Made by a program: the position numbers and the translations under genes. A DNA stretch of 64,000 nucleotides from Myxococcota bacterium (GTDB taxonomy: Bacteria > Myxococcota_A > UBA9160 > JAFDDA01), in NCBI GenBank assembly GCA_965228475.1, contig OZ245817.1, forward strand, positions 1,056,001 through 1,120,000, written 5' to 3'. This document shows, one piece after another, positions 32,812-55,100 of this stretch (position 1 is its first letter; each line of letters begins with the position of its first letter). Under the pieces are notes generated by a model that saw only the letters and a list, made by a program, of their open reading frames with translations, searched no databases and was not told where the DNA came from.

Positions 32812-32834
32812 GGTCGTTGCCTCCTCGATCACCT

Positions 32835-33912: not shown

Positions 33913-36249
33913 ATGCTCAACCGCATATCGAGCCTCGCTCGGCTCCTGACCGAGATCAGCGTCCGACGGCCGCTGGCGACCGCTGCGGTTGGCCTGGCCC
34001 TGACCCTGGGGCTCGCGTTCCAGGCCGCCCAGCTCACTAGCGAGGTCGGGTACGCCGCCTACTTCGGGCCGGACGACCCCGCAGTCGATCGCCTCTCCAG
34101 CTTCTTCGAGGAGTTTGACAGCGGGCTGCACGTCCTCGTCGTGTTCGGCTGCCCGGGGAGCAAGGTCTGCTCGTCCATTCAGGATCGGTCCGCGCTCGAG
34201 TTCATCGCCGAGCTCCAGCAGGAGCTGGATCGCCTGCCGAACGTCCGGCGGACGCAGAGCGTGCTCAACGCTCCGATCGTGGTGGGGCCCCTGGAGACGC
34301 GCACGATCGCCGAGCGCAACGGGCAGGGTGACTATTCCCTAGCCGACGATTGGGAGAGCCTTGCGACTCGCTCCCTTGGCGAGCCGTTTCTTGCCAACGT
34401 GGTTGTCTCGCAGGATGGGAAGACCGCGGGAATCATCGTCGAGTTTCAGTCACTCGACAGCGAGCCCGTGCGCGACCTGGTGCACGCGATCCTCGACCTG
34501 ACGCCCAGGTACGAAGAGGAGCTCGGGAGCGAGATCTTCGTCGCGGGCGACCCCGTCTGGACGGTCGTTGCCGACGACGACCTGGACGCGGACTCGCTGA
34601 ACCTGACCGTCCTCATGTTCGTTCTGATCACGGCCATTCTCTGGGGCTTCTTCCGCGACGTCTGGCTGACCGCGCTCCCAGTGCTTTCGGTTGGAGGGCT
34701 CACCGTCGGCATCCATGGAGTCATCGCGTTGCTCGGGATCCCGATGACGACCATCCTGGCTGCGCTCCCGCCGCTCCTAGTCGTCATCGCCATCACCGCC
34801 GCGATCCATCTTCTGACGTCCTTCTTGCGTCACCCCGACCTGGAGCCGGGGCCGGCACTCGTCCGCGCCGCCGATGAGGTCGGCCCCGGGTGCCTCTGGG
34901 CGGCCGTCACGACGGCGGCGGGCTTCGGTTCGTTCCTGCTGAGCGACCTCGCGAGCTTCCAACAGTTCGGTCTGGCTGCGGCCATTGGCTTGGTGCTCGC
35001 CTTTCTCGGCACCTTCACGATCCTGCCGGCTCTCCTGTGCCTTCGCCCTCCGCGCACCCGGGGCCCCGATCGAGCCCGGCTCGGCGTCGTCCGAGAGATG
35101 CTGGGTGCGGCGATCGCAGCCGTCACCAGCAGGCCCGCATTCGTTCTCGCCACGGGATGCGCCGTTCTCATCGGCCTCGCGGCCGGGATCCCCCGGCTCT
35201 ACTACGAGGTCGATTTCGGCGATCAGTCGCTCGTCCTCCGCTCCGTCCGATTCATGGAGGCGAACTTCCGCAAGCCGATGACGACGGAGCTCGTCGTCAC
35301 GGTCCCGGAAGGCAGGCGGATCTACGACGAGGAGAGCCTGCGTCTGCTCCGTCGCCTGGAGGAGTACTTCAAGGGCGAGCCCAGCAGCGGTGTCGCTTGG
35401 AGCTTCCTGGACTTCCTCGAAGAGGCATATCGCATCGACCACGGCAGGCGAGCGAACTCATTCGACGATCTGGTGAACGCCGCGCGTGGCGAGATGCCCA
35501 TCGTCGCCTCGTACGACGGGCTGTCAGCTTTCTGGAGCGAGTCGGCTTCTGAGGGAGAGGAGGGCGCAAGGATCTACCAGGATCGCGCTCGCGTCTCGGT
35601 CCACCGAAGCTGGCTCAACGGTGAAGAGCAGATCCCGTACGTCAATCGGCTTCGCGAGTTCATTGCTGAGGTCAACCGGGATGTCGAAGGCGAGGGGTAC
35701 CGAGTCGAGCTGAACGGTGGGCTCGAGCTCGCCGCCCTCGCGGAGGAGCGTATCCGCGACACCCAGTGGCGGAGCTTCGGGACGGCCTTCGCCGTGGTGA
35801 CCGCGACCCTGTGGGCTCTGCTCTGGTCCATTCCCTCACTCGCCGCGCTGGGAATGATCGTGAACGTACTCCCGGTGATCGGATTGCTGGGTCTGATGGG
35901 GTGGACCGGGATCGCGGTCGATCCCGCAAACACGATGGTGGCTGCCGTGCTGCTGGCCATCGCGGTGGACGACACGATCCACGTATCACTGCGTTACCAG
36001 CGCAGGCGACGCGAAGGTGCATCGAGGCGAGATGCCGTCACGACGACGCTTCTGACGGTCGGCGAGGCCGTCGCGATCACGAGCATCTGTCTGGCGCTCG
36101 GGTTCGCGGTCCTGATGTTCTCGCGGTGGGGCGGGCTCGTCTCGTTCGGCCTGCTCGCAAGCCTCGGGATTGTGTTCGCCCTGGTCGGAGACCTCTTGCT
36201 TCTTCCAGCGGCGCTGCTCAGTCGGGACCGAGGGGAGCCTCAGCAATGA
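33913..36249 (+). CDS. MMPL/RND-family lipid transporter
   Basis: Two repeats of TM + large loop + TM bundle; AIHLL, TTAAGFGS, AIAVDDTIH, GDLLLLPA. Confidence 0.88.
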   Translation: MLNRISSLARLLTEISVRRPLATAAVGLALTLGLAFQAAQLTSEVGYAAYFGPDDPAVDRLSSFFEEFDSGLHVLVVFGCPGSKVCSSIQDRSALEFIAELQQELDRLPNVRRTQSVLNAPIVVGPLETRTIAERNGQGDYSLADDWESLATRSLGEPFLANVVVSQDGKTAGIIVEFQSLDSEPVRDLVHAILDLTPRYEEELGSEIFVAGDPVWTVVADDDLDADSLNLTVLMFVLITAILWGFFRDVWLTALPVLSVGGLTVGIHGVIALLGIPMTTILAALPPLLVVIAITAAIHLLTSFLRHPDLEPGPALVRAADEVGPGCLWAAVTTAAGFGSFLLSDLASFQQFGLAAAIGLVLAFLGTFTILPALLCLRPPRTRGPDRARLGVVREMLGAAIAAVTSRPAFVLATGCAVLIGLAAGIPRLYYEVDFGDQSLVLRSVRFMEANFRKPMTTELVVTVPEGRRIYDEESLRLLRRLEEYFKGEPSSGVAWSFLDFLEEAYRIDHGRRANSFDDLVNAARGEMPIVASYDGLSAFWSESASEGEEGARIYQDRARVSVHRSWLNGEEQIPYVNRLREFIAEVNRDVEGEGYRVELNGGLELAALAEERIRDTQWRSFGTAFAVVTATLWALLWSIPSLAALGMIVNVLPVIGLLGLMGWTGIAVDPANTMVAAVLLAIAVDDTIHVSLRYQRRRREGASRRDAVTTTLLTVGEAVAITSICLALGFAVLMFSRWGGLVSFGLLASLGIVFALVGDLLLLPAALLSRDRGEPQQ

Positions 36250-38993
36250 GTGCGACCAAGCCGCTCAAGAGATGGCTGGTTGTAGCTGCAGTCGTGGTTC
36301 CGTGGGCAGTCGTCTGGCCTTCTCCGGATGGGCTTCGCGCGCCGACTCAGGCCCTGGATGCACCGCTCGACGAAGGTCTCCGCGTGCCCTTCGCCGCGAC
36401 GTTTCTTCGCACGGCCAACCCCGCCTTCGAGCCGCATGACCGGGTTCTCGATCTCACGTTCGAAGGGGAGGATCAGCTGATCCCGCCGAGAAACCGCGCA
36501 GAGCTGCTGCTCCTGGCGCGGGAGAGGCATGGCGACCGGATGTCGATACGCCTCGTGCGAGGCCGCGATCCAGTGACCGTGCGAGCCAACACTACGACGC
36601 AGTCGGGATGGCGGTCTTTGGGCGCGAACTGGCCGACGCTCTTCCTAGGAGCTGCATTCCTCCTCTTCGGCCTGGCCGTCGGCCTCGGCAGCCAGCATCC
36701 CGTCGCTTCTCCGCTCTTCGCGGTGTCGTGGTGCGCCGGAGCCTGGGCGCTCTCGCAGGTGGACTTGATGCTGCCAGAGGACCCGGGGCTCCACGGGATA
36801 CCCTCGTTGCGCTCGCGGCTCGGGCTGGTGAGCGTCACTCTCCTGCCCGCCTCCTTCATCCATCTGGCGATGCGGTTCCCGGTCGTGTCGCCTCGCTTCC
36901 GCTCCGCCGGAGCGGCCTTGGCTCCCTATGGCTTCTGGCTCTTCCCGGCCGCCTTCGCCCAGTTTCACGTCCAGAATGCGGCGTTCCTGAACTCCCTGGA
37001 GCGCATCGCCATCGGAGCTGCCTTCCTGGCAGCAGGAATCCTCATCGCCGGGAGCATCACCTCGGCGAGCACGATGACCCCGATCGAACGCGCGCGGAGC
37101 CGCGCTCTGCTGCTCGGCCTGGGAGTCGGCAGCGCCGTACCGCTCGTCTATTTCCTCTGGGGCGGGACACCTCCAACGCCGCTCCGCACGCCATTCATCC
37201 TGTCCTTGCTCGCCTTCCCCGCATCCATCTCGTGGGCGATCGTCCGCTACCGCCTTCTCGATCCGCCCATGTGGGTGCAGAGCGCGGTGCTGACCGGGCT
37301 GACTGCCTCGGTTGCTCTGCTCCTGGCGAGTGGCGGTGTCTCCTTCGCGTTCTCGTTCCTCGATGAAGCTGAGCCCCTCGGATCGGCCGAGGTCATCCCG
37401 GTCGCGTTGACCACGACCGTCCTGTACCAGCTCCTTCATTTCGGCCTGCGACGGGGAGCCGCCGGTCGGGTCCTGCGAGAGCGAGCCTTCGAGTCGCTTC
37501 TAGAGGAGGCGAGCCAGCAGCTCGCGTCCGCGAGGCACCCGAAGCGAGTCCTCGAAGGCATCGAGCCGCTGATCCGTACACATCTCGGCGCCAGCGAGGT
37601 CAAGTGCCTTCTCGAAGAGGAGGCGGCGGCCTGTTCCGAGCCCCTCGTCAACCGCGGACTGGATCTTTGGCAAGGCGAGCGCAAGGCACCCGAGGCAATT
37701 GTGCGGGCGCGGTCCCGGGCCGAGGACCCGGGACCGGATGTGCCCGAGATCGTCCTTCCGCTCCTTCCCAGGAGCACGGCGAAGGCGTTCGTGTTCGTGG
37801 GATCGCGTTCCGATGGCCTCCCGTACGGGGAGGACCACGTTCGTATGCTCGTCAGTCTTCGCCACGTCGCTACCACCGCGTTGGAGGCCGCGGCGACGAC
37901 TGCAGACCTCGAGGAGCGGGTGGCCGAGAAGACCACATCGCTCGAACGGGCTCTCTCGGATCGCCAGGCCGTGCTCGGTGCCGCCCGAGCGATCTGTGAG
38001 GCGGACGGGGCTGACGAGGTGCTCGCGACGCTCCGCGGGTTCGCCGCAGCGCATCAAGCTTCCCTCCGCTGGGAAGGCGGCACTGAGGGGGCGCACATGC
38101 TCAAGCTGGCGATCCCAGGGGAGCCCGTGCGTTTGTTGGAGCTCGAAGGGATCGCGCCTCAGCGCGCCGAGGAGCTTGCCCCACAGCTCGGCACTCTCTG
38201 CGCGTTCGCAGGGCTCGCCATCGGTCGGCTCAACCTGCTCGCAGAGCTCAAGCTAGAGGTCGAGCGACAGGCGGAAGAGATCGCCGAGATCAGCTCCCGC
38301 CGACTTCACGCGGAGTTCGTCCGGGGCGTCGCCCACGAGCTGCGAAAGCCTACCGAGGAGGTCCGGCGCCGCGTCGAGGACCTCGGTGCCTCCTTCGCAC
38401 CGAAGCACGCCGACGCTCTCCGGCGGATCCGGGCAGCGAGCCGCGAGATGTCGCGCCGGCTCGACCTGCTGCTCTTCCACTCGGGGGTACGTCTCGATCT
38501 CCAGCGGATCGACCTGGTGCGGGTAGTCGAGGACGCCGTCGCGACCACAAGGCTTGGCTGCCCCGATCGGGACTACCGGCTGAGCCACGACCTGGCGCGC
38601 CTACCCATGATCGGGGACCCAAGCCGTCTGCTCTCGGTGGTCGAGAATCTCCTCGACAACGCCGCCAAGGCGACAAGCGCTGGACAGGCGATCGAGGTCG
38701 GCACCTCGCTGGAGGCTGGCAGCAGCTCCGGCGGCGCCCAGGTCCGCCTGGAAGTCGTGGACGAAGGGCGAGGCATCCCGCCCGATCGCCTCGAAGTGAT
38801 CTTCCAGCCCGGCGTGGGCCTCGAGCCCGGTGGGTTCGGGCTGGGCTTGTCCCTGTGCCGTGAAATCGTCCGCATGCACGCTGGGACGATCGAGGTGGCC
38901 TCCACGCCAAGCAGAACCAGCTTCTGCATTCGCTTGCCGCAGTTCCGTTCGGGGGAAGACGATGACCGCGACAGCATCGATTCTGTTGGTTGA
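36246..38993 (+). CDS. Multi-TM sensor histidine kinase
   Basis: Periplasmic domain, many TM, AIVRYRLLD, H-box AHELRKP, N-box ENLLDNA, DEGRGI, GFGLGL. Confidence 0.9.
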   Translation: MSATKPLKRWLVVAAVVVPWAVVWPSPDGLRAPTQALDAPLDEGLRVPFAATFLRTANPAFEPHDRVLDLTFEGEDQLIPPRNRAELLLLARERHGDRMSIRLVRGRDPVTVRANTTTQSGWRSLGANWPTLFLGAAFLLFGLAVGLGSQHPVASPLFAVSWCAGAWALSQVDLMLPEDPGLHGIPSLRSRLGLVSVTLLPASFIHLAMRFPVVSPRFRSAGAALAPYGFWLFPAAFAQFHVQNAAFLNSLERIAIGAAFLAAGILIAGSITSASTMTPIERARSRALLLGLGVGSAVPLVYFLWGGTPPTPLRTPFILSLLAFPASISWAIVRYRLLDPPMWVQSAVLTGLTASVALLLASGGVSFAFSFLDEAEPLGSAEVIPVALTTTVLYQLLHFGLRRGAAGRVLRERAFESLLEEASQQLASARHPKRVLEGIEPLIRTHLGASEVKCLLEEEAAACSEPLVNRGLDLWQGERKAPEAIVRARSRAEDPGPDVPEIVLPLLPRSTAKAFVFVGSRSDGLPYGEDHVRMLVSLRHVATTALEAAATTADLEERVAEKTTSLERALSDRQAVLGAARAICEADGADEVLATLRGFAAAHQASLRWEGGTEGAHMLKLAIPGEPVRLLELEGIAPQRAEELAPQLGTLCAFAGLAIGRLNLLAELKLEVERQAEEIAEISSRRLHAEFVRGVAHELRKPTEEVRRRVEDLGASFAPKHADALRRIRAASREMSRRLDLLLFHSGVRLDLQRIDLVRVVEDAVATTRLGCPDRDYRLSHDLARLPMIGDPSRLLSVVENLLDNAAKATSAGQAIEVGTSLEAGSSSGGAQVRLEVVDEGRGIPPDRLEVIFQPGVGLEPGGFGLGLSLCREIVRMHAGTIEVASTPSRTSFCIRLPQFRSGEDDDRDSIDSVG

Positions 38994-40290
38994 AGACCAC
39001 GAAGGCACGCGTTCTCAGCTGAGCGACGAGCTCCAGTCGTCAGGCTACCGGGTGATTTCAGCGGCCGACGGCCGAGAGGCGCTGGAGGCCTTAAGGAGTC
39101 GTCCTGTGGACCTGATCCTGAGCGACTATCGCATGCGGCCGATGGACGGCTTGTCACTGCTCCGCGCTGTTCGCAAGACGCTCGAGGTGCCCTTCGTTCT
39201 CTACAGCGCAGGAGCCGACGCTCAGGCGGTCTTCGAGGCAGGGCGAGAGGGTGCCGTCCGCTTCCTGGAGTATCCGTTCCGTCTCGCGGACCAGCTCCTT
39301 CCCACGATCGCTGAATCCCTGGGTCGCCCACGTGGCGGCACGCCAAGCGTTCCGCGGGCCGGTGCCGACCGGCTCATCGGCGCCTCCGCAGGCATGCGCC
39401 GCGTGCGGGCCACCATTCGCCGCCTTGCTCCGACTGCGACGACGGTCCTGATCCATGGCGAGACCGGCACCGGCAAGGAGCTCGTGGCCCGGGCCATCCA
39501 TGAGGAGAGCGACCGCGACACCTTCGTGTCGGTCTCCGTGCCGGAGCTGTCGGAGGGCGTGCTCGAGAGCGAGCTCTTCGGTCATACCCGAGGAGCTTTC
39601 ACCGGAGCGGTCTCTTCTCGGCCGGGCCTCTTCGAGGCGGCGAGCGGCGGGACGCTCTTCCTGGACGAGATCGGCGACACCCCGCTGCCGATCCAGGTGA
39701 AGCTCCTCCGGGCGCTCGAAACGCGGGAGATCCGGCCCGTCGGTGGCTCGGCGCCGCGCACGGTGGACGTTCGGATTGTGGCAGCGACCAACCGCGACCT
39801 GGCGGAGATGGTTCGCCGCGGAGAGTTCCGCGAGGATCTCTTCTACCGGCTGCGCGGCGCCACCATCCACCTTCCTCCGCTCCGCGCCAGGACGGCCGAC
39901 ATCGAAGGGATCGCGCAGGTGCTCGTAGCCGAGATCGCAGAGGCAGCGCGAGTGCCGCTTCCGAAGCTGGACCCCGGTTTCCTCGCGGCCCTGGCCGGCT
40001 GTCCATGGAAGGGCAACGTACGAGAGCTGCGGGCCGTCCTGGAGAACGTCATCCTCTGGCGGGACGGGGATGGGCCCCTCGAGCGGGTTCACCTGATCGA
40101 GGCTCTGGTGGCCATGAACCCGAATCTCAGCCCGGAGGACCAGCTTCTGGCACAGAAGATCCTGGACGCCTACCGCCGCCACGGCTGGAACCAGGAGGCC
40201 GCGCGCCGGGAGCTCGGCCTGACTCGCGGCGAGTGGCGCAGCCGGTTCACGCGGCTCGGTCTCGACGCAGTGAGGCGTCGAAGGCGGTGA
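38962..40290 (+). CDS. Sigma-54-dependent response regulator (NtrC family)
   Basis: Receiver (ILLVED, SDYRM), GETGTGKE, ESELFGH, GAFTGA, LFLDEIG, FREDLFYRL, WKGNVREL, HTH. Confidence 0.93.
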   Translation: MTATASILLVEDHEGTRSQLSDELQSSGYRVISAADGREALEALRSRPVDLILSDYRMRPMDGLSLLRAVRKTLEVPFVLYSAGADAQAVFEAGREGAVRFLEYPFRLADQLLPTIAESLGRPRGGTPSVPRAGADRLIGASAGMRRVRATIRRLAPTATTVLIHGETGTGKELVARAIHEESDRDTFVSVSVPELSEGVLESELFGHTRGAFTGAVSSRPGLFEAASGGTLFLDEIGDTPLPIQVKLLRALETREIRPVGGSAPRTVDVRIVAATNRDLAEMVRRGEFREDLFYRLRGATIHLPPLRARTADIEGIAQVLVAEIAEAARVPLPKLDPGFLAALAGCPWKGNVRELRAVLENVILWRDGDGPLERVHLIEALVAMNPNLSPEDQLLAQKILDAYRRHGWNQEAARRELGLTRGEWRSRFTRLGLDAVRRRRR

Positions 40291-41132
40291 AGGCTAGAGC
40301 TGCGCTCCTCCTCGCGCTCCTGGCTGCGAGTGCCACGGCGTCCGGAGCCCCGGACGCGCTCGAGGATGCAGTCGAGCCGTCCGCTCTTCAGATCGTGGAG
40401 ACCGCCTTCGACCGCATGTTCAACTACCCCTCGGTGCGGACGGTGACCCTCCGGATCCACCGCCAGGGCGACCGGATCACCTACCGCTCCTTCGACGTCG
40501 TCTACAAGAAGGTCGATGGCCGCGGCCGAACGCTGCTGCGCTTCACCGAGCCCGAGTATCTGCGCGGCAACACCCTGCTGATCATCGAGGAAGAGGACGG
40601 TCGGAACGACACTTGGATCTACCAGCGGGAGCTGCGGCGGCCGCGACGGGTCCTCGCAGGCCACAAGGGCGACCCGTTCTACGGCAGCGATCTCTCGTTT
40701 GAGGACCTGGAGCACCACGATTGGCGACGCTTCGACCTCCAGCGCCACCCCGACACGACCTTGCAGGGTAGACGGGCCTTCGTCGTGGAGGCGGAGACGC
40801 CATCCGACTCGCAGTACTCGAAGGTCGTGGCGACGGTCGAACGCGATCGCTTCGCACTGCTTCGGCTGGACCTCTTCAAAGCGGGGTCGGGAGAGGCGAT
40901 CAAGTCCTTGGAGTTGGCGGCGGATGAGATCACCGAGGACGGCGGCATCCTCAAGCCCGACCGCATGTGGGTTCGGCAGCCGGGGCGCGATGCCGCGACA
41001 GAGGTGATCTTCGACCAGATCGAGGACGACCCCGAGATCGCAGACTCGGTCTTCGCCGCGATGAGGCTCGAACGTTCGGGCGAAGATCTCTACCGCCTAG
41101 TCGAGCGGCTGCGCGAGGAGTCCGCGCCATGA
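40287..41132 (+). CDS. Outer-membrane lipoprotein-sorting (LolA-like) periplasmic protein
   Basis: Signal peptide; LLRFTEP...DTWIY...RRV...FYGSDLSFEDL, YSKV motifs typical of MMPL-associated LolA-like proteins. Confidence 0.82.
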   Translation: MKARAALLLALLAASATASGAPDALEDAVEPSALQIVETAFDRMFNYPSVRTVTLRIHRQGDRITYRSFDVVYKKVDGRGRTLLRFTEPEYLRGNTLLIIEEEDGRNDTWIYQRELRRPRRVLAGHKGDPFYGSDLSFEDLEHHDWRRFDLQRHPDTTLQGRRAFVVEAETPSDSQYSKVVATVERDRFALLRLDLFKAGSGEAIKSLELAADEITEDGGILKPDRMWVRQPGRDAATEVIFDQIEDDPEIADSVFAAMRLERSGEDLYRLVERLREESAP

Positions 41133-42223
41133 TGGACGGCTACCGCCGACGGCCGCTCTACAGCGCGGACAACGAAGACACGCGCTCCGAACTCAAGGCA
41201 CTCGAGATCGGAGGCGACGACACGGTCGTCGCCATCGCGGCAGGAGGGGGTAGGGCTCTCAGCCTCCTGACGGCCGGTCCAAAGCGTCTCATCGCGATCG
41301 ACCGTCGCCCTGAGCAGGTCTTCAATCTGGAGCTCAAGGCCGCGGCGATGGACGCGTTCGATCTGGCCCACTTTCAGGGCTTCCTGGGCATCGCGCATGG
41401 CTTCGATCGCCTGGACCAATACCGGACTGTTCGCCCGTCTCTTTCGCGAAGCGCCCGAAGGTACTGGGACAATCGCCGTCGGCTCATCGAGGCCGGCGTC
41501 TTTTTCGCCGGCCGCACCGAAACGGCGCTCATCCGGTTCATGCAGGGCTTGAAGGCCCTCGGTCTGATGGCTTGGGCAGAGCCCTTCTTCCAGGCGACCT
41601 CGCTGGAGGCGCAGCAAGCCCTCTTGGAGGCTCGGCGCCAGCACGTAGATCAGGGCATGGTCTGGTGGAAGCTCTTCTGCCACCCCTTGGTGATCTATTC
41701 GCTCGCCCAGGACCCAAGCTTCCTCCGCTCGACGGACGAGAGCGTCGGCGCCTACCTCGTTCGGCGCGTAGTCGACTACGCATCGTCTCACCTGGTCCGA
41801 GAGTCCTACGTCCTGCGGCTCGCTTATGACTGCGGTTTGAGCCCGAACAGTCCGTTGCCACCATACCTCGAAGGCACGGGTTTCGACCAGGCGAAGAAGC
41901 ATCTCGACCGTCTCGAGGTCCAATGCGGCGACCTTCGTGACTTCGTCCCTCGCTCCCGCATCAGTAGTCGGGTCAAGTGGTCGCTCTCGGACGTGAGTTG
42001 CTGGATGACGGAAGCGCAGTTTCATGATCTTCTACGCTCCATCACAGTTGCGCTCCCGCCGGCGTCACGCTTCTGCGCCAGGAACTTCGCAGCTCGCCGC
42101 GAGATTCCGCGCGATCTTCGCCACCGCGTTCGCAGGATGGACGAGCTTTGCTCCGCTCTCAACTCGGAAGACTCCTCGGTCATCTACCGCTTCGAGTGCG
42201 CGGAGATATTTCCAGGCGCCTAG
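41129..42223 (+). CDS. DUF3419 / BtaA-like SAM-dependent 3-amino-3-carboxypropyl transferase
   Basis: LYSADNED...DTVVAIAAGGGRALSLL...PKRLIAID..PEQ..LELKAAA, ARRYWD, SLSDVSCWM. Confidence 0.75.
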   Translation: MMDGYRRRPLYSADNEDTRSELKALEIGGDDTVVAIAAGGGRALSLLTAGPKRLIAIDRRPEQVFNLELKAAAMDAFDLAHFQGFLGIAHGFDRLDQYRTVRPSLSRSARRYWDNRRRLIEAGVFFAGRTETALIRFMQGLKALGLMAWAEPFFQATSLEAQQALLEARRQHVDQGMVWWKLFCHPLVIYSLAQDPSFLRSTDESVGAYLVRRVVDYASSHLVRESYVLRLAYDCGLSPNSPLPPYLEGTGFDQAKKHLDRLEVQCGDLRDFVPRSRISSRVKWSLSDVSCWMTEAQFHDLLRSITVALPPASRFCARNFAARREIPRDLRHRVRRMDELCSALNSEDSSVIYRFECAEIFPGA

Positions 42224-42295
42224 CCAGCGCCGGATTCCTTCCGTTGCCTAGGTCCAATCGAAAGGGTAAGGACCGTATCGACGGTGTAGAGGTAG

Positions 42296-43444: not shown

Positions 43445-43489
43445 GTCCCAGGGGCTCTCACAGCCTCTTTCGCCGGCGTCTCGGGGCAA

Positions 43490-44549: not shown

Positions 44550-44565
44550 TGGCACGGTCATTGCT
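44550..44565 (+). promoter_or_regulatory. Sigma-54 (-24/-12) promoter of the trb operon
   Basis: TGGCACGGTCATTGCT matches TGGCACG-N4-TTGCW, 17 nt before trbB ATG. Confidence 0.85.
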
Positions 44566-44582
44566 CTAGCCCGGGGCTGCCC

Positions 44583-45563: not shown

Positions 45564-45573
45564 GGAGGCAGAG

Positions 45574-45939: not shown

Positions 45940-46292
45940 TGGAGCCGGGGACCACGCGAGGGGCCGATGTCGATCGTCCCAGGATCGTTCCGATTCACAG
46001 AGCACTGACACGCCCGGTCCTGCTTGCTGGAGCGGATCGGGAGCTCGTCCTCGCCAACGGCGTGGTGGTGATCGCTCTGCTCTTCGGGATCGGCTTCTCG
46101 TGGTACACGGCCTCGGTCTCGGCGGTCCTGCTGATCGTGGGGCACTGGGGCCTCGTGCTCCTCGCGAAGCGCGACGCGGAAATCCGGCGGGTGTACGTGC
46201 GCCACGTTCGCTTGGCGACGTACTACCCGGCCGCGGCGCGCTGCGTCCGAACCGCTCCGCTCGTCCACGCCTCCGTGACGGTCTCGGAGTAG
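45939..46292 (+). CDS. trbD: TrbD (VirB3)
   Basis: PIHRALTRPVLLAGADREL...AKRD. Confidence 0.88.
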   Translation: MEPGTTRGADVDRPRIVPIHRALTRPVLLAGADRELVLANGVVVIALLFGIGFSWYTASVSAVLLIVGHWGLVLLAKRDAEIRRVYVRHVRLATYYPAAARCVRTAPLVHASVTVSE

Positions 46293-46296
46293 CGGC

Positions 46297-48729
46297 GTGC
46301 TTCGCGAGCATCGTGCGCAGGCGCTCGGGCTGCCGGACCTCCTGAACTTCGCCGCCCTGGTCGAGGAGGGCATCGTCCTCAACAAGGACGGCGCCCTCCT
46401 CACGGGCTGGTGGTACGCGGGGCCGGACATGGAGGCGGCCAGCCACGAGGAGATGGCGGTCCTCTCCTCGCAGGTGAACGGCGCCCTGGCCCGGCTTGGC
46501 AACGGCTGGATGCTCCAGGCCGATGCCATCCGGAAGCCGGCAGGAGCCTATCCGCCGCAAGGTGCCTTTGCGGATCCGACGACAGCCCTGATCGATGAAG
46601 AGCGCCGCCGGCAGTACCTGGCCGGAAGGAGCACCTACGAGAGCGTCTATGCGCTCACCGCGACCTACCTGCCGCCGCGCGACGTCCAAGCGCGGCTCGG
46701 CGGCTGGTTCGTCGAAGGGGAGGCGGAGGACGCGGGTGGATACGAGACCATCCTGCGCTCCTACCAGCGTCAGGTGGTGGAGCTCGAGGACGCCCTCTCC
46801 GACCGGCTCTCGATCAGCCGGATGGACTCTGAAGATCTCCTGAGCTTCCTCCACCTCTGCGTCACGGGCCGGGCGCAGCCCGTGCGAATCCCGCCCACCC
46901 CGATGTACCTGGACGCCCTGCTTGGAAGCCAGGATCTCGTCGGCGGGTTCCGCCCGCGCGTGGGCGACCGACACGTGCGGCCGATCGCCGTCGTGGGATT
47001 CCCTGCGGACTCGTTCCCCGGAATCCTGGACTTCCTCAACCGCCTTCCCGTCGAGTACCGCTGGTCGAACCGCTTCATCCCCCTCGATCCCGACACGGCG
47101 GAGGCTCGCCTCCGGATCGTCCGCCGCAACTGGTTCCAGAAGCGCCAGGGTCTCTCCGGCCTGGTGAAGCAGGCACTGAACATGGGGGAGTCGACCTTCG
47201 GCAATCGCGATGCCGTTGCGATGGCGGAGGACGCGGACGACGCCGTGGAGGAGGCGTCTTCCGGAACCGTCCGGTTTGGCTACTACACGAGCGTCATCGT
47301 CCTTCTCGACGACGAACTCGAAGCCCTGGACGCCGCGTCGCGCCAGGTCTGCCGCAGCCTCCAACACCACGGCTTCGCAGCGCGCGTGGAAGAAGTGAAC
47401 GCGCTCGAGGCGTACCTGGGCTCCATCCCCGGGCACGGCCATCGGAACGTCCGGCGTCCGCTGATCCACACGCTGAATTTCGCCGACCTCATCCCGACGA
47501 CGAGCGTCTGGCCGGGCCTCGACGAGAACCCGAGCCCCTACTATCCAGCGGGCAGCCCGGCGCTCCTCTACGCGAACACCTCCGGCTCGACGCCGTTCCG
47601 TCTGAACCTCCACGTCTCGGACGTGGGGCACACGCTCGTCCTCGGCCCCACCGGCTCCGGCAAGTCGACCCTGCTCGGTCTCCTGATGGCCCAGTTCTTC
47701 CGGTATCCGGGCGCCCAGGTCTTCGCCTTCGACAAGGGCTACAGCAGCCTCGTCCTCGCGAAGGCTGCCGGCGGCGATCACTACGACGTGGCCAGCGGTG
47801 AGAGCGAGGATCTGGCCTTCTGTCCGCTCTCCGGTGTCGATCGCGCGGAAGAGAGGCTCTGGGCAGCCGGCTGGGTGGAGATCCTGCTCGGGCTCCAGGA
47901 CGTGGCGGTGACGCCCGCTCACCGCCAGGCGATCCAGGCAGCGCTCGAGCGTCTCGGCACCAGTGAGAGCCGCACACTCACCGACTTCGTCAACACGGTG
48001 CAGGACCGGCTGATCCGGGAGGGCCTCCGCCACTACACGCTCCAGGGCGCGATGGGTCGCCTTCTCGACGCCGAGGAAGACGGGCTCCGGAACGGCAGCT
48101 TCCAGGTCTTCGAGATGGAGCACCTGATGAACACGGGCGACGTCAACGCGGTGCCCGTGCTCGCCTACCTGTTCCACCGCATCGAGCAGCGCCTGACGGG
48201 CCGGCCCACGCTGATCGTGATCGACGAGGCCTGGCTGATGCTCACGCACGGTGTCTTCGCCGAGAAGCTGGAGGAGTGGCTCCGGGTCCTCCGCAAGGCG
48301 AACGCCGCCGTCGTCTTCGTGACGCAGAGCCTGGCCGAGGTCTTCCGCTCTACTCGCCGGGACCTCCTGCTCGAGTCGTGCCCAACGAGGCTCTTCCTGC
48401 CGAACCCGGGCGCCCACAGCGAGCAAACCAGCGAGCTCTACCGGCGGATCGGCCTGAGCCAGCAAGAGATCGAGATCGTCGCAGGGGCCGTCCCCAAGCG
48501 GCACTACTACTACGCCTCTCCCCTCGGCCGCCGGCTCCTCGACCTCGGCCTCGGCCCGCTCGCGTTGAGCTTCGTCGGCGCGTCCGGCCGCGAGGACCTC
48601 GAACTCTGCCGCGGCCTCATCGAAGACAACCCGGGCGACTGGCCGGCGGAGTGGCTCCGCTGCCGTGGCCTGGGGGACTGGGCCGATGGATGGCGCGCCC
48701 TGAAGGAGAACCAGCATGCTTCGACCTAG
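46297..48729 (+). CDS. trbE: Conjugative ATPase TrbE (VirB4)
   Basis: LNKDG, YRWSNRFI, TPFRLNLHVSDVGHT, GPTGSGKS, FDKGYS, IDEAW, LRKAN. Confidence 0.95.
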   Translation: MLREHRAQALGLPDLLNFAALVEEGIVLNKDGALLTGWWYAGPDMEAASHEEMAVLSSQVNGALARLGNGWMLQADAIRKPAGAYPPQGAFADPTTALIDEERRRQYLAGRSTYESVYALTATYLPPRDVQARLGGWFVEGEAEDAGGYETILRSYQRQVVELEDALSDRLSISRMDSEDLLSFLHLCVTGRAQPVRIPPTPMYLDALLGSQDLVGGFRPRVGDRHVRPIAVVGFPADSFPGILDFLNRLPVEYRWSNRFIPLDPDTAEARLRIVRRNWFQKRQGLSGLVKQALNMGESTFGNRDAVAMAEDADDAVEEASSGTVRFGYYTSVIVLLDDELEALDAASRQVCRSLQHHGFAARVEEVNALEAYLGSIPGHGHRNVRRPLIHTLNFADLIPTTSVWPGLDENPSPYYPAGSPALLYANTSGSTPFRLNLHVSDVGHTLVLGPTGSGKSTLLGLLMAQFFRYPGAQVFAFDKGYSSLVLAKAAGGDHYDVASGESEDLAFCPLSGVDRAEERLWAAGWVEILLGLQDVAVTPAHRQAIQAALERLGTSESRTLTDFVNTVQDRLIREGLRHYTLQGAMGRLLDAEEDGLRNGSFQVFEMEHLMNTGDVNAVPVLAYLFHRIEQRLTGRPTLIVIDEAWLMLTHGVFAEKLEEWLRVLRKANAAVVFVTQSLAEVFRSTRRDLLLESCPTRLFLPNPGAHSEQTSELYRRIGLSQQEIEIVAGAVPKRHYYYASPLGRRLLDLGLGPLALSFVGASGREDLELCRGLIEDNPGDWPAEWLRCRGLGDWADGWRALKENQHAST

Positions 48730-49519
48730 CCGAACGACCTGGAGCGCGGGCCTCGCTCTCGTCGCCTTGGGCGGCGTCCTTCTTCTCGGCCCTCGCACTT
48801 CCCATGGTCAGCTGGTCGTGCTCGACCCGACCAATCTCGTCCACAACATCACGACTGCCATCCAGCAGACCCTGAGCGTCGCCCAGGAAGTGCAGATGGT
48901 GGCGAACCAGGGCACCCAGATCGTTCAGCAGGTCCGCCAGCTCGAGAACGAGCTGCAGATGCTCCAGAACATGCTGGTGAACACGACGCCTGCAGGCACC
49001 GTTGCCTGGGCCGACGTGCAGACGGCCCTCGGCAGCCTCGGCCAGGCGATGCAGATCGGCCTCTCCATTCCCTACACGCTCGGGAATGTTGCCACCGTCT
49101 TCGAGAGCCGCTTCCCGGGCTACGTGCCCCCGGCCGATTGGACGGCGGCGTACGACTCCTGGGCGACCAGCGTCCTCGACACGCTGCGCGGAACCCTCGC
49201 CGCGGCAGGCGAGAACGTTGCCGACGCGCCGAGCGTTCAGGCGGCACTCGACCGCCTTCGCCTGGCAAACGACGGCGCCCAGGGCCGACTCGAAGCCCTC
49301 CAGGTCGGCAACCAGATCGCGAGTCTCCAGGTCGAGGAGATCGGAAAGCTCCGCCAGCTCTTCGCGGCGCAGATCAGCGCGCAGAATGCCTACCTCGGTG
49401 CCCAGGAAGCCAAGGCTGCGGGATCGGCGGCGGCGTTCGACGCCTGGTTGGGCAACGCGCCCTCCATGATCCCGGTCTCCCGACCCAGCGAAGGTCTCGC
49501 GACCGTACCGCGCCCGTAG
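48716..49519 (+). CDS. trbJ: TrbJ (VirB5-like)
   Basis: V.DPTN..N, Q-rich coil, AQGRLEALQVGNQ; position after trbE. Confidence 0.85.
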   Translation: MLRPSRTTWSAGLALVALGGVLLLGPRTSHGQLVVLDPTNLVHNITTAIQQTLSVAQEVQMVANQGTQIVQQVRQLENELQMLQNMLVNTTPAGTVAWADVQTALGSLGQAMQIGLSIPYTLGNVATVFESRFPGYVPPADWTAAYDSWATSVLDTLRGTLAAAGENVADAPSVQAALDRLRLANDGAQGRLEALQVGNQIASLQVEEIGKLRQLFAAQISAQNAYLGAQEAKAAGSAAAFDAWLGNAPSMIPVSRPSEGLATVPRP

Positions 49520-49539
49520 GGCAGGGTGAGCGCCCTTCG

Positions 49540-50763
49540 ATGACCACGATCCTCACGGACCTCGTCAACGCCTTCCAAGCCGCCACCGCCGGCTGGTTCG
49601 GGGTCCTGTTTCCGATCGCGCGGAACCTGTTCTTCACGCTCGCCACGATCGAAATCGTGTGGGCGGCCTCCTGGTGGGTGATCGAGCGCGACGACCCGAC
49701 GCAGATCTTCGTCCAGTTCCTGAAGCGGATCATGGCGATCGGCTTCTTCCTGGCCGTCCTGACGTTCGCCGACGTCTGGATCCCGGCGATCATCGACGGC
49801 TTCGCCACGGCCGGGCGGACCGCTGGCGGGCTCCCGGAGCTGAACCCCAGCACCGTGATCGACCAGGGCATTGCGGTGGCGTCCACGCTGATTTCGAGCA
49901 TCAGCGTAGCCGGCTGGTTCACCTCGCCGGGCGGGAACTTCGTTGCCGCCATCGCGGCGCTCCTGACGTTCCTGGCATTCGTGGTCATCGCAGGCCAGCT
50001 GGCCCTGGCCCTGATCGAGATGTACGTGGTGATCGGCGGAGGCGTGCTGCTTCTCGGCTTCGCAGGCTCGCGCTGGACGATCCCCTTCGCCGAGCGCTAC
50101 CTGAGCTACGCCGTCGCCATCGGGATCAAGCTCTTCGTCCTCTACCTGATCATCGGGGTCGGGACTGCGCTCGCGGCGTCCTGGCAGCCGACCCTGGCCG
50201 GCGCGGGCAGCTCGCCCTCGGATCTCTTCGCGATCCTGGGCGCTGCGCTCGTCTACATGATCGTGGCGTGGCAGATCCCGTCCTTCGCGTCGGCGCTGAT
50301 TGCCGGTTCGGTCAACCTGACGCTCGGGACCGCGATCTACACCGGTGGATCCATGGCCGCCGTGGCGCTCGGCGTGAAGGGCCTTGCCGCGCGCGCCGCT
50401 GCATCCGGAGCGCGCGGGTCGACGGCGATGCTCGAGGCGGGCCGCTACGCCCGCGCCGCCCATGCGGCGGGCGCCTCTGGAGCAGTCGGCTCCCTTGCGG
50501 GGGGCTTCTCAGCCCTGGCGACCGAGGCCGTGGCAGCCCGAGCCCGCCGCGTCGCCGGCCTCCCGGCCGGACGCACGGCCGATGCCCTGCGCGAGCGCCG
50601 GATCGCCCGTTTCGGGGATCCCCGCGACGCCGCTTCGCCGGCCCGCCTTCCCGCTCCGCGCCCGGGCGCCGGCTCGCGCGGCGCCGGCGCTTCGCGTTCC
50701 ACCCAAACGCCGCCTTCGCCCCGTTCCGGCCCGACCGGAAGCGGGGATCGCCGGCAGAGCTGA
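49540..50763 (+). CDS. trbL: TrbL (VirB6)
   Basis: LFFTLATIE, LNPS, LIEMY..GG..LLGFAGSRWT..AERY, low-complexity tail. Confidence 0.88.
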   Translation: MTTILTDLVNAFQAATAGWFGVLFPIARNLFFTLATIEIVWAASWWVIERDDPTQIFVQFLKRIMAIGFFLAVLTFADVWIPAIIDGFATAGRTAGGLPELNPSTVIDQGIAVASTLISSISVAGWFTSPGGNFVAAIAALLTFLAFVVIAGQLALALIEMYVVIGGGVLLLGFAGSRWTIPFAERYLSYAVAIGIKLFVLYLIIGVGTALAASWQPTLAGAGSSPSDLFAILGAALVYMIVAWQIPSFASALIAGSVNLTLGTAIYTGGSMAAVALGVKGLAARAAASGARGSTAMLEAGRYARAAHAAGASGAVGSLAGGFSALATEAVAARARRVAGLPAGRTADALRERRIARFGDPRDAASPARLPAPRPGAGSRGAGASRSTQTPPSPRSGPTGSGDRRQS

Positions 50764-50778
50764 GGAGGTCCTCGACCG

Positions 50779-51429
50779 ATGCGCACCCCCGAGAATCCGT
50801 ACCTGGCCGGCCGGCTCGAGTGGAACGAGCGGTACCACGGCTTCCTTCGAGCCAAGCGCAACTGGCAGATCATCGCCGTGGTCGCCCTGGTCGTGAATGC
50901 GGTCCTCGGCCTCGGGATCCTCTGGCAGTCGTCCCAGAGTCGCGTCACGCCATACGTTGTCGAGATCGATGAGCTCGGTCAGACGCTCGTGGTCGGCCCC
51001 GCCGACAAGGCGCGTGCCGCCGATCCCCGTCTCGTCCGCTACCAGGTGGCGGACTTCATCCGCAAGACCCGCTCGATCGTGGCCGACGGCGCCGCGGAGA
51101 AGCAGTTCCTCGACACCGCCTACGCCCACGCCACGGGCGCGGCCACCCGCTTCCTGAACGACCACTTCAAGGTGCACAACCCGTTCCTGCGCATGCGGGA
51201 ACGGACCGTCAGCGTCGAGATCACGAGCGTGCTCTCGCTCCCGGCGAGCGACTCGTGGCAGATCCAGTGGACCGAGATCCACCGAGGTCTCGACGGGGCC
51301 GTCCTCACGCGCGAGCGCTGGCAGGCGGTCCTGAACGTGGAGATCCGGCCGGCAGCCACGCCAGAGGTTATCGAGCAGAACCCGCTCGGCCTCTACGTCA
51401 CGGACATCCAATGGACCAAACAGCTTTGA
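50779..51429 (+). CDS. trbF: TrbF (VirB8)
   Basis: ENPYLAGRLEWNER, PYVVEID, SWQIQWTE, NPLGLYV. Confidence 0.92.
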   Translation: MRTPENPYLAGRLEWNERYHGFLRAKRNWQIIAVVALVVNAVLGLGILWQSSQSRVTPYVVEIDELGQTLVVGPADKARAADPRLVRYQVADFIRKTRSIVADGAAEKQFLDTAYAHATGAATRFLNDHFKVHNPFLRMRERTVSVEITSVLSLPASDSWQIQWTEIHRGLDGAVLTRERWQAVLNVEIRPAATPEVIEQNPLGLYVTDIQWTKQL

Positions 51430-51440
51430 GGAGGAGAGCG

Positions 51441-52397
51441 ATGCAGAGATTGCGTTCGAGAGCGTACTTGGCGGCGGCGGCGGCGGTGGCGTGCGGAGCG
51501 TGCTCCTCCGTGCCGGAGCTCGGGCCGGAGGACTTCGTTCAGGCCAACCAGGTGACGGAGGAGATCGTGTTCACGGACCCGATGGGACATCCGACCGACG
51601 CGGACTTCCTCAGCCAGGACGACCCGGAGCTCGTGGAGGCCGTCCGCCAGTTCCAGTCGACCGGGAAGGCTCCGATCGTCCGCAAGCCGGGCTTCGTCCG
51701 CTTCCCGTACGGCGACCGGCAGCCCATCCTCTACTGCAAGCCCCTGCGCGTGTGCGACATCCAGCTCCAACCGGGCGAGAGCGTCCTCCACATCGCGCTC
51801 GGCGACTCGGAGCGCTGGATCGCCTCCAAGATGGAGAGCGGCCCGGCGGACGGCCGCGCACCGCACGTCGTGGTGAAGCCGACCGAGTTCGACGTCAGTA
51901 CCAATCTGGTCATCACGACCGATCGGCGCGTCTACCACCTCGGGCTCATCAGCAACCAGGAGGACAGGTCCGGCTACTTCCGGAGCGTCCGCTTCTACTA
52001 CCCGCAAGAGACGGTCCAGCGGTGGGCGAGCGCAGAGGCGAAGCTGCGCGATGAGGTGCACAGGAAGCGCGACGTCGCTCGCCTCCCTCTCGTGAGGCCC
52101 GAGGGCCTCAACTTCGGCTACCGGATCGAGGGGGATCGAGTTCCCTGGCGGCCCGTCCAGGCCTTCGATGACGGCACCCGCGTCTTCCTGCAGATGCCGG
52201 GCGCGATGGCTGCCACGGAGGCACCCGCTCTCTTCGTCCGGTCGGACAGCGAAGAGCAGGCGCTCGTCAACTATCGGCTGCGGGGCCGGTACTTCGTGGT
52301 GGACAAGCTCTTCGCCCAGGCCGTGCTGGTTCTCGGAGTCGGCGGCGACCAGAAGCGAATCACCGTGACCCGCCTTCCGCGCGAAGCGCGGCGCTAG
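51441..52397 (+). CDS. trbG: TrbG (VirB9)
   Basis: DIQLQPGE, GDSERW, HVVVKP, TNLVITTDRRVYHL, PVQAFDDG, LVNYR. Confidence 0.92.
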   Translation: MQRLRSRAYLAAAAAVACGACSSVPELGPEDFVQANQVTEEIVFTDPMGHPTDADFLSQDDPELVEAVRQFQSTGKAPIVRKPGFVRFPYGDRQPILYCKPLRVCDIQLQPGESVLHIALGDSERWIASKMESGPADGRAPHVVVKPTEFDVSTNLVITTDRRVYHLGLISNQEDRSGYFRSVRFYYPQETVQRWASAEAKLRDEVHRKRDVARLPLVRPEGLNFGYRIEGDRVPWRPVQAFDDGTRVFLQMPGAMAATEAPALFVRSDSEEQALVNYRLRGRYFVVDKLFAQAVLVLGVGGDQKRITVTRLPREARR

Positions 52398-52414
52398 GCG
52401 GCGGAGGGCTTGCC

Positions 52415-53659
52415 GTGACGGACGAGCATGATCCGATCCAGACCGAGGAAGACGCGACACCCATCGAGCTCGAGCCGCGGCCGCGTGTCGTCCGCCTGAA
52501 CCGACGAGCGATCTTCGTTGCCGGCGGGCTCGCGACGGCTGTGATCCTTGCCGCCGTCTTCACCCTCTCGGATCGTAGCCAGCGCGTTGCTCAGCGCCCG
52601 GATCCAGCTGCCGGAGTGAGCACTGCGCCGGATCGGTTCTGGGAGGGTGAGTCGGATGGCGTCCCGCGTCTGGCCGCACCGGTTCCTGCGGCGGATGCAC
52701 CGGTCGCGGCCGCGGGTGCGCCCCCGGAGCTCGACAAAGACGCACCGCCTCAGCTTATCGAGACCAGCGATGGGGTTGCGGACCAGACCCTGCGGCGCGC
52801 CTTCACCTCGCGCCCGATCGTTTTCGAGGGAAACGATGAGGTCGCTCGAACCCCTAGCGCGGTTGTGGCGCCGCCGCACCGACCTGCGGCTTCTCCAGAC
52901 GCGGCGGGTGTTCTCCAGGCCGCGAGGGATCTCTACTCCAGCCAGCAGACGCAGGACGACCCGATGGTCAGCCAGAACCTCCAGCGCGAGAAGCTTGAGT
53001 TCATGCGCAACGCGGAGCTCGGCGTCGGGGAGGAGATCCTCGAGCACCGGGTTCGCCCGTCGCTCTCGCCCTACGAGGTGAAGGCCGGCTCGCTGCTGCC
53101 CGCCGTCCTCGTGACCGAGGCCAACTCGGACCTGCCCGGCCAGCTGATCTCACAGATCCGAGAGAACGTCTTCGACTCGGCCACGGGCGCACACCTGCTG
53201 ATCCCGCAGGGCACGCGCGCCATCGGCGTCTACGACAGCCTCGTTGCCCACGGCCAGGAGCGCGTGCTCGTGGCGTGGCAGCGCCTCATCTTCCCCGACG
53301 GCTCGGGCCTCAACCTGGGCTCCATGCCCGGGACGGACGCCGCTGGCGCCGCCGGCTTCCACGACCGCGTGGACCACGACTACCTGCGCGTCTTCGGAGG
53401 CGCCATCCTGCTGAGCGCCATCAGCGCCGGCCTCCAGGTCTCCCAGGGCACCTTCGGCAGCGGGAACCAGGCCACGGACGCGCGCGATCTCCGCGAGATC
53501 CTCGCCGCCGCCCTCGGCCAGAACCTCGGCGAGCTGGGTACCGAGATCGCCCGGCGCAACATGAACGTCCAGCCCACGCTGGAGATCCGGCCCGGCTATC
53601 GCTTCAACATCGCCGTCATGAAGGACCTGGTCCTGTCGGGGCCGTACCAGGCCTTCTGA
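52415..53659 (+). CDS. trbI: TrbI (VirB10)
   Basis: SPYEVKAGSLLPAVLVT..NSDLPG, LLIPQG, QERVLVAWQRLIFPDG, QPTLEIRPG. Confidence 0.93.
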   Translation: MTDEHDPIQTEEDATPIELEPRPRVVRLNRRAIFVAGGLATAVILAAVFTLSDRSQRVAQRPDPAAGVSTAPDRFWEGESDGVPRLAAPVPAADAPVAAAGAPPELDKDAPPQLIETSDGVADQTLRRAFTSRPIVFEGNDEVARTPSAVVAPPHRPAASPDAAGVLQAARDLYSSQQTQDDPMVSQNLQREKLEFMRNAELGVGEEILEHRVRPSLSPYEVKAGSLLPAVLVTEANSDLPGQLISQIRENVFDSATGAHLLIPQGTRAIGVYDSLVAHGQERVLVAWQRLIFPDGSGLNLGSMPGTDAAGAAGFHDRVDHDYLRVFGGAILLSAISAGLQVSQGTFGSGNQATDARDLREILAAALGQNLGELGTEIARRNMNVQPTLEIRPGYRFNIAVMKDLVLSGPYQAF

Positions 53660-53683
53660 CGCGAGCCACAGGAGGAGAGCCAC

Positions 53684-53917
53684 GTGAAGCTGCAGCGGCG
53701 CAAGAGCGACGAGCCGCCCATCGAGATCCGCGTCACCGTGCCCGCCGAGATCGTCTCCGATCTCAAGGGCTACTGCCGCTACTACGAGGCCACCTACGGC
53801 GAGCCGATCGAGCTTCCGGCGGTCACCGTGGAGATCCTGCGCCACTTCCTGCGCGTGGAGCGCGACTTCCGCCGCTGGCGGCGCGAGCAGGAGCCGGGAG
53901 CGCCGCGGGGCTCATGA
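53684..53917 (+). CDS. DUF2274-like small protein following trbI
   Basis: P.EIRVTVP.E...DL..Y..YY..TYG...L..FL...RDF pattern and position as in Tn4371-type ICEs. Confidence 0.75.
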   Translation: MKLQRRKSDEPPIEIRVTVPAEIVSDLKGYCRYYEATYGEPIELPAVTVEILRHFLRVERDFRRWRREQEPGAPRGS

Positions 53918-55096: not shown

Positions 55097-55100
55097 GCGG

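Follow-up and report, generated by a model that had tools for sequence, protein, structure and literature searches.

The 64,000-nucleotide window analyzed here (G000:C1:1056001-1120000 in our numbering; assembly GCA_965228475.1, a Myxococcota bacterium) lies entirely within a 112-kb integrative conjugative element (ICE) of a 5-Mb genome. Upstream of the trb mating-pair operon, it carries five overlapping genes for an MMPL transporter, a sensor histidine kinase, a sigma-54 activator, a LolA-like protein and a DUF3419 enzyme. Comparison of related loci indicates that this five-gene operon is part of the conserved ICE backbone and not cargo, and its activator is very probably the master switch for transfer. 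In the circuit that we propose, the kinase would set the phosphorylation state of the activator, which would bind an enhancer-like element, TGG-N7-TGG-N14-CCA, and thereby activate two sigma-54 promoters, that of the trb operon and that of a second operon of xis-like, traF-like, relaxase and VirD4 genes. The DUF3419 enzyme would make a lipid derived from S-adenosylmethionine (SAM), the MMPL and LolA-like proteins would move it out, and the kinase would probably read it. The lipid would mark neighbours as ICE carriers and silence the kinase, as an OFF sign, in the way CAI-1 acts on CqsS; islands with the same site would hitchhike on the ICE switch. We estimate the probability of the full circuit, cell-to-cell signal included, at about 0.5.

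The ICE is bounded by a 56-bp direct repeat at a tRNA-Thr gene (repeats 96% identical) and holds the full complement of integrase, flanking repeats, relaxase, coupling protein and mating-pair genes. A tyrosine integrase gene (G000:C1:1040528-1041787) marks its left end; the element further contains metal-resistance and other cargo, the five-gene operon, trb, two radC genes and ardC. Near its right end, the opposite strand carries genes for an xis-like helix-turn-helix (HTH) protein, a traF-like product (identified by eye) and a DUF3363 relaxase and, about 28 kb past trb, VirD4. The relaxase matches DUF3363 and scores 224.7 bits against the RlxS-type profile NF041267, whose cut-off is 850. The same layout is seen in a second genome (G313:C21).

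The P-type mating-pair operon trbB-C-D-E-J-L-F-G-I, followed by a DUF2274 gene (44583-53917, + strand; Pfam assignments, TrbB_P above cut-off), begins 2.36 kb after the DUF3419 gene. A perfect sigma-54 (-24/-12) promoter motif, TGGCAC-N5-TTGCT, lies at 44550-44565 on the + strand. This bears out the initial annotation, made from the sequence of the window alone, which had placed a trb operon with a consensus sigma-54 promoter about 2.3 kb downstream of the five genes. The motif is not due to chance, because the genome contains 22 strict motifs at spacer 5, with 0.5 expected, whereas any other spacer length between 2 and 9 gives 0-2. A second motif at G000:C1 1143499 (- strand), with an enhancer at 1143557, precedes the xis-like, traF-like, relaxase and VirD4 genes, and such a motif opens the relaxase/VirD4 operon in 3/3 ICEs. 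Within the clade of related trb loci described below, the motif stands 31-32 bases before the trbB start in all seven members; at this position it is absent from 14 other genome loci and from 73 other evaluable metagenome loci (87 outgroup loci together), five of the 73 having a loose motif at -61 to -118 of trbB. The host genome contains rpoN, and sigma-54 control of both transfer operons is highly likely. Both promoters of this genome share a short stretch of matching sequence directly before the -24 box, which was dropped as it is not conserved in other ICEs. The leader between the predicted transcription start and the trbB start codon would be only about 7 bases long (window 44550-44585), with no clear ribosome-binding site, and this short spacing is kept in 7/7 clade members.

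All five genes of the upstream operon were correctly named in the initial annotation; they lie on the + strand with overlapping ends. The first encodes an MMPL/HAE3-type RND inner-membrane transporter of 778 residues (33913-36249; Pfam MMPL, E 4.5e-37, with Patched and sterol-sensing matches) with 11 hydrophobic segments, whose best NCBIfam match, HAE3 TIGR00921 at 181.6 bits, is below cut-off. An ATGA overlap leads into the gene for the sensor histidine kinase (36246-38993; 915 residues; HATPase_c), which is laid out as an N-terminal helix, a PDZ-like outer domain, a multi-helix membrane domain, a GAF-like region, DHp and ATPase. The third gene, with a 32-base overlap, encodes the receiver-AAA+-HTH sigma-54 activator (38962-40290; 442 residues; Pfam Response_reg and Sigma54_activat; intact GAFTGA). 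Its phospho-acceptor Asp, Walker A/B and GAFTGA region are conserved; its HTH_8 match is below cut-off, yet the segment is conserved. A GTGA overlap follows, then the gene for the LolA-like periplasmic carrier (40287-41132; 281 residues; Pfam LolA_like, E 8.7e-28), with a signal-peptide-like N-terminus lacking Cys. After another ATGA overlap comes that of the DUF3419 SAM-dependent transferase, a candidate signal synthase (41129-42223; 364 residues; Pfam DUF3419, E 6.3e-46). A Pfam scan detected no outer-membrane channel gene in the operon. Gene order is the same in every homologous locus looked at, down to 40-50% identity.

The kinase deserves closer description. Residues 1-685 match no family in a Pfam search, and neither Pfam nor the structural model shows a receiver domain; the PDZ assignment is an Atlas lead only. 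The AlphaFold2 model (predicted local distance difference test, pLDDT, 82.9) comprises a small outer domain rich in beta structure, some nine long helices, and GAF-like and kinase domains. H697, N805 and the G-boxes are invariant in 37 homologues, and so are H151, H206, R210, Y228, W231, E252, W330 and R334 of the membrane region; these polar and aromatic residues plausibly line a ligand pocket. Fold searches with the whole kinase were dominated by the catalytic domain and barely probed the sensor part. A predicted complex of kinase residues 1-410 with the LolA-like protein scored 0.00, which gives no answer either way.

The candidate enhancer TGG-N7-TGG-N14-CCA (44389-44418, + strand) lies 161 bases upstream of the trb sigma-54 motif. 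A dyad search of ten ICE promoters gave TGG-N14-CCA in eight, and the third half-site was added by eye; the element is thus defined by nine bases. It is exact in 8/10 ICE promoters at -87 to -172, reversed at the relaxase promoters, and occurs at spacing 7/14 only, other spacings giving 0-2. The exact element accompanies two of 70 sigma-54-like sites in this genome, namely the two conjugation promoters (0/68 host sites), and five of 20,000 random windows. Exact intergenic copies are limited to the trb and relaxase promoters, six others being inside genes. With at most one mismatch, the element is found in 7/9 loci of a chromosomal version of the operon, at -88 to -101, versus 2/68 host sites and 2/67 outgroup trbB regions. 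We assign the element to the operon's activator mainly because it follows this activator into two different settings. The distinctive HTH of the activator is alike in ICE and chromosomal copies and unlike that of a second activator found beside the chromosomal version. Upstream of the operon's own sigma-70-like -10 box is a tandem half-site, TTGG-N6-TTGG (33803-33816, + strand), which keeps the same 10-base repeat as the enhancer. It stands 99-113 bases before the MMPL start in 5/5 operons checked; the genome has 13 copies, an expected frequency of 2e-4 per 150 bases, and we infer that it could be an autoregulatory site for the activator. One-mismatch copies of the enhancer also flank the ICE integrase gene (G000:C1:1040481 and 1041781), with no nearby sigma-54 consensus; there are 32 such sites in the ICE, and these copies may be due to chance.

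Adjacency of the operon to trb proves little by itself, because the host has about 21 other sigma-54 activators, all outside the ICE; that of the operon is the only one inside. Of 193 genomes belonging to the order, 20 have a DUF3419 homologue, 14 have TrbB and five have both. In each of the five genomes with a TrbB of at least 67% identity, the operon precedes trbB in the same orientation and on a shared contig, at distances of 2.4, 2.4, 7.5, 13.0 and 27.6 kb. A scan of metagenomes for TrbB kept 80 loci. One of these, L092 (TrbB 64%, kinase 44%), has the operon 4.0 kb upstream of trbB and represents a sixth linked ICE; in another, L090 (TrbB 77%), the sequence is too short to judge linkage. 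The operon is thus present in 6/6 clade TrbB relatives with enough sequence, with 2.4-27.6 kb of variable cargo. The other 78 metagenome loci, 26 of them with at least 9 kb upstream, have no DUF3419 or LolA-like match; L097 and L098 show kinase and regulator matches upstream of trbB, but neither a LolA-like nor a DUF3419 match. In a quick tree of 61 rows (without metagenome loci L135-L169 and four genome loci), the seven motif-bearing TrbB sequences form a single clade (SH-aLRT 95). These relationships indicate that the operon-trb association is a single gain, kept while the kinase drifted to 44% identity, and not a repeated independent association. Identity among ICE copies is 44-80% for the kinase, 48-81% for the DUF3419 enzyme and 64-92% for the activator. 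Furthermore, four metagenomes from four studies contain relatives of the operon and of trb with little of the intervening cargo, no bridging contig being listed. The regulatory half of the initial annotation, in which the operon controls the trb promoter through sigma-54, fits these data well: operon, trbB motif and enhancer are co-inherited in one TrbB clade, and the relaxase operon has the same type of promoter. Of note, no trbK-like open reading frame (ORF) stands between trbJ and trbL in 5/5 clade ICEs; trbK loss was rejected as a clade marker, as near outgroups also lack it.

The operon also has a chromosomal life. In family f4, 11/17 genomes carry a version 43-50% identical to that of the ICE, and one genome (G313) holds both (chromosomal loci L019-L021, L066, L068, L070, L071, L073, L076 and L079-L081). 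Where looked at, ordinary genes follow this version, and a divergent gene for a receiver-less sigma-54 activator of 349 residues faces it; the promoter of the latter has a sigma-54 motif in 9/9 loci. Judging from this arrangement, the chromosomal version would drive the receiver-less activator. In L019, the genes flanking the operon encode an ArsA-family ATPase and an acyl-CoA ligase. Among the genomes covered, the operon's activator is found only in the host's own order (22/225 genomes of the class), with no occurrence among the 32 genomes of the family outside that order.

We then searched 225 related genomes for the enhancer combined with a sigma-54 motif, using the element read backwards as a control. 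This yielded 27 sites at short spacing (control 4) and 9 at long spacing (control 1), that is 36 versus 5. Seven of the 36 were already known (five trbB promoters and two chromosomal copies). Among the 29 new sites, 17 precede an integrase sequence (13 by Pfam, one of them weak; 4 by tblastn), two precede homologues of the ICE xis-like gene, one is cut by a contig end, seven have no assigned downstream gene and two precede non-mobile genes. Many island sites lie beside tRNA or tmRNA genes, and some islands have kept a VirD4 of 73% identity or homologues of a pair of small ORFs from the ICE backbone. The sites with no identified downstream gene include L192, L193, L194, L197, L247 and L251; L192 and L194 are near tRNA genes. 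Nine genomes with integrase sites show no match to the activator at E<=1e-105; in G083 and the single-contig G128, even its last 83 residues find no match, while G408 and G411 give weak partial matches. The pattern suggests that the enhancer-bearing islands are satellites of the ICE switch. In all likelihood transfer is driven by the activator through binding to the element, and islands without an activator of their own would be induced in trans.

The nature of the signal is the more speculative half of the circuit. The model of the DUF3419 enzyme (pLDDT 93) has a class I methyltransferase fold (best Z 14.8, root-mean-square deviation 2.5, 156 aligned residues) with a large helical insert. No solved structure matched it by sequence, and Foldseek gave no match at E<=0.001. 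The enzyme is 29% identical to a homologue in a ketosynthase-III cluster and 23% identical to a BtaA-type protein, the DUF3419 member of a Sinorhizobium pair in which a BtaB-type methyltransferase adjoins it, and which we take to be btaAB; a Glu-Asp pair near the N-terminus and a Gly-rich SAM motif align with the BtaA-type protein. Elsewhere in the host genome there are several LolA-like genes; this operon has the only DUF3419 gene. No BtaB partner is found in the operon, to which this search was confined. More distant DUF3419 proteins (P0206, P0214, P0274, P0305, P0315, L170, L172) are fused to GNAT, aminotransferase or PEMT domains or are encoded in clusters that contain ketosynthase III or, in other cases, HMG-CoA reductase-like, UbiA and PPDK-like genes; what looked like an N-terminal fusion in P0172 proved not to be LolA-like. 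BtaA moves the aminocarboxypropyl group of SAM, and the betaine-lipid product is diacylglycerol-based (PMC10491745, in part); a DUF3419 gene also adjoins the cly cluster (PMC7923214, in part). Since the operon has no BtaB and the family is not restricted to betaine lipid, a finished betaine lipid is an unlikely product. A 'homoserine lipid' is a family-level guess, because identity to the BtaA-type protein is just 23%.

By analogy, the signal half resembles phcBSR and CqsA/CqsS/LuxO: a lone SAM enzyme, an exporter, a carrier and a kinase share one operon. We lean moderately towards the DUF3419 product being the ligand of the kinase; that it is an aminocarboxypropyl (homoserine-ether) lipid passing between cells is a weak proposition. 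As to its sign, OFF is slightly favoured over ON, and the evidence does not favour the activating signal suggested in the initial annotation over a silencing one. We may tentatively envisage a new signal class, in which an aminocarboxypropyl lipid made by DUF3419 and exported by the MMPL and LolA-like proteins would gate sigma-54 conjugation through the kinase. The ICE would learn whether neighbours carry the ICE, tRNA-integrated satellites would eavesdrop, and one host family would keep a chromosomal copy wired to a second activator.

Several observations weigh against the full circuit. The clade is one evolutionary event, so that the six ICEs are not independent, and the enhancer was discovered on the ICE promoter set, so that its 8/10 occurrence is no blind test; it is also missing from the G173 relaxase promoter and from L090. 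The operon also occurs outside type IV secretion loci. The initial annotation had held that homologous operons mostly unlinked to such loci would speak against its proposal, and this is partly what we find: 15/20 genomes with a DUF3419 gene have no TrbB match, ten of these carrying the chromosomal, non-ICE version with its other sigma-54 target. ICE-like copies in G307, G314, G355 and G405 are on short contigs or contig ends in genomes with no TrbB match; G307 is 98% complete, its ICE-type copy being at a contig end, and in G439 13 kb downstream of the operon contain no trb. The DUF3419 family is diverse, with lipid-like clusters and fusions, and its fold cannot separate methyl from aminocarboxypropyl transfer. 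Finally, island sites in genomes with no activator found could also be explained by a host activator.

The last point leads to a different circuit, in which the element is bound by a sigma-54 activator of the host and transfer is timed by host physiology, while the operon, though backbone, regulates something else. The host has candidates enough in its 21 or so sigma-54 activators, and this reading would account for the island sites of G083 and G128, two genomes with no match to the activator or to its last 83 residues. However, no host sigma-54-like site in G000 (0/68) has the exact element, only 2/36 sites across the 225 genomes precede clearly non-mobile genes, and the element also occurs at the promoter neighbouring the chromosomal copies of the operon and, as half-sites, at the operon's own promoter; we regard this explanation as quite unlikely. 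That the operon is ordinary cargo lying near trb by chance is strongly disfavoured: although 15/20 genomes with a DUF3419 gene have no TrbB match and the ICE is full of cargo, the operon stays at the same place and in the same direction in six ICEs whose flanking cargo is entirely different, the enhancer statistics do not fit, and the four metagenomes with operon and trb relatives have little of the cargo between.

Two further explanations retain the switch and change the role of the lipid. The DUF3419, MMPL and LolA-like proteins may provide an output lipid that aids mating or blocks redundant uptake, while the kinase senses contact or a periplasmic protein. This is unlikely, if less so than a host activator. 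The PDZ-like outer domain of the kinase (the Atlas lead mentioned above) would suit it, PDZ domains usually binding peptides, as would the half-sites at the operon promoter, through which the trio could itself be regulated. The lack of a trbK-like entry-exclusion ORF in the five clade ICEs points the same way, but such an ORF is also missing in 5/28 outgroup loci, the nearest included. Moreover, the genes of the trio are interspersed with those of kinase and activator and coupled to them in translation, and the trio stays in the chromosomal copies of ten genomes with no TrbB match, where a mating lipid has no obvious use. Alternatively, one and the same cell may make, export and sense the lipid to gauge its membrane or SAM state, with MMPL export lowering the kinase input and no message passing between cells. 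A diacylglycerol-based product such as that of BtaA (PMC10491745, in part) would be poorly diffusible, and the operon has no outer-membrane channel gene; a periplasmic carrier, on the other hand, implies movement off the inner membrane. Kinase and enzyme are also less conserved than the activator, as in diverging signal-receptor pairs, a weak argument as sensors generally drift faster. We consider such a one-cell gauge very unlikely.

Other features of the ICE lie outside the proposed circuit. The slot between the DUF3419 gene and the enhancer (window 42224-44388) is a defence hotspot, as judged from its gene content: what fills the gap between DUF3419 and trb differs in every ICE and is often defence-like where looked at. 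In our window the variable cargo (42296-44305) consists of HEPN_RES_NTD1, RES and an unknown minus-strand ORF, three unrelated ORFs of low GC content. HEPN_RES_NTD1 and RES (42296-43444) are in one frame, split by a single stop at 42671-42673, and may be either a broken gene or two ORFs; this region, of lower GC than the backbone, has no PADLOC hit. The corresponding slots in L018, L025 and L086 hold a UvrD/GajB-like helicase; a type II restriction endonuclease, PD-Lambda-3_B and PDC-S28; and a restriction enzyme, a methylase and IteAS-like genes. Copper and heavy-metal cargo precedes the operon (16699-33637: an RND efflux set, cupredoxin, P-type ATPase, metal repressor, MerC and MerR), with a TraX-family gene amid it (26348-27106). 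After DUF2274 comes a 75-residue ORF (54343-54570) with no Pfam family, kept at 96% in G416, 86% in G313 and 54% in G118; the non-coding stretch before it (window 54110-54570) recurs at 77-81% identity before both radC genes (G000 1125663 and 1133763). Further downstream (54647-63933 and L002:1-5300) come genes for TetR, an RND pump, a thioesterase and several cytochromes P450. Immediately beyond the left end of the ICE are genes for GmrSD-type and REase-ARP nucleases (L001:575-3246).

The logic of the circuit has precedents. Like our ICE, SXT/R391 ICEs and IncA/C plasmids encode a master activator of their own (SetCD and AcaCD, respectively) that recognizes its own DNA motif at several transfer promoters. 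Islands responsive to these activators carry the motif at int and at a directionality-factor gene and are induced in trans (PMC4542580, in part), the same pattern as the enhancer-bearing int/xis sites seen here in islands with no activator found. SetCD and AcaCD, however, are FlhCD-like class II activators at sigma-70 promoters, whereas we find sigma-54 motifs, a distant enhancer, a receiver-AAA+ candidate and a cognate kinase; this does not fit an FlhCD-like heteromer, although no FlhC/FlhD profile search was made. 

The Vibrio CqsA/CqsS-LuxU-LuxO circuit shares a small lipid-like signal, a membrane kinase as reader and a sigma-54 activator as output. CqsA is a pyridoxal phosphate (PLP) enzyme. 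CqsS is a hybrid kinase using LuxU, its output is small RNAs and there is no RND/LolA-like pair, whereas the operon here would gate conjugation and has no PLP enzyme or HPt, nor a receiver in its kinase. The ligand of CqsS shuts off the kinase and hence the sigma-54 activator (PMC3310172, in part). In Ralstonia phcBSR, the signal derives from a fatty acid; a SAM-dependent methyltransferase produces it and a histidine kinase of the same operon reads it (PMC11960443, in part). The likeness is that of a SAM enzyme and a kinase in one operon, PhcB and DUF3419 being compared by description only; the output of phcBSR is the LysR regulator PhcA and virulence genes, with no sigma-54 activator or transporter in that circuit.

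Conjugation gated by a self-made signal is itself familiar: TraI/TraR of Ti plasmids turns conjugation on, and Rap-Phr of ICEBs1 turns it off. The Rap-Phr signal of pLS20 likewise inhibits conjugation (PMC11448139, in part). In place of these, the operon here has a kinase and sigma-54, with no peptide/Rap pair. The LuxR autoinducer-binding domain PF03472 has no match in this 96%-complete genome, the control being matched in Escherichia coli; LuxI (PF00765) has none either, with no match in the control genomes. The DUF3419 family links the operon to BtaA/BtaB, from which it differs by its 23% identity, the lack of a methyltransferase partner and the union with transport and sensing genes on a mobile element.

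The gene content of our ICE (tyrosine integrase, DUF3363-type relaxase, traF-like gene, VirD4, trbBCDEJLFGI, DUF2274) is that of the Tn4371 family, whose backbone places a LysR-type traR gene and traG directly upstream of trbB. In that family, TraR, a LysR-type regulator, activates transfer at xis and traG (PMC11448139, in part). Here, by contrast, RES cargo lies upstream of trbB, VirD4 is encoded some 28 kb beyond trb on the opposite strand, and a sigma-54 motif precedes each of the two modules; no LysR match was seen among the ICE ORFs scanned, which are not all ORFs of the element. A literature search, with most subscription papers outside its reach, retrieved no report of this operon, of a kinase-controlled sigma-54 conjugation switch or of sigma-54-driven ICE transfer. 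Signal-gated conjugation, a master activator and satellites are thus known logic, of which the parts and wiring seen here were not found described. If true, the circuit would give a DUF3419 enzyme and an MMPL-LolA-like pair their first signalling role and reveal a network of helper and satellites in an order of bacteria that has received little study. The master switches of conjugation known so far rely on LuxR, Rap-Phr, LysR or FlhCD-like proteins acting at promoters of the sigma-70 type; the one proposed here comes down to one activator, one 30-base element and two promoters, a set directly testable in a laboratory strain.

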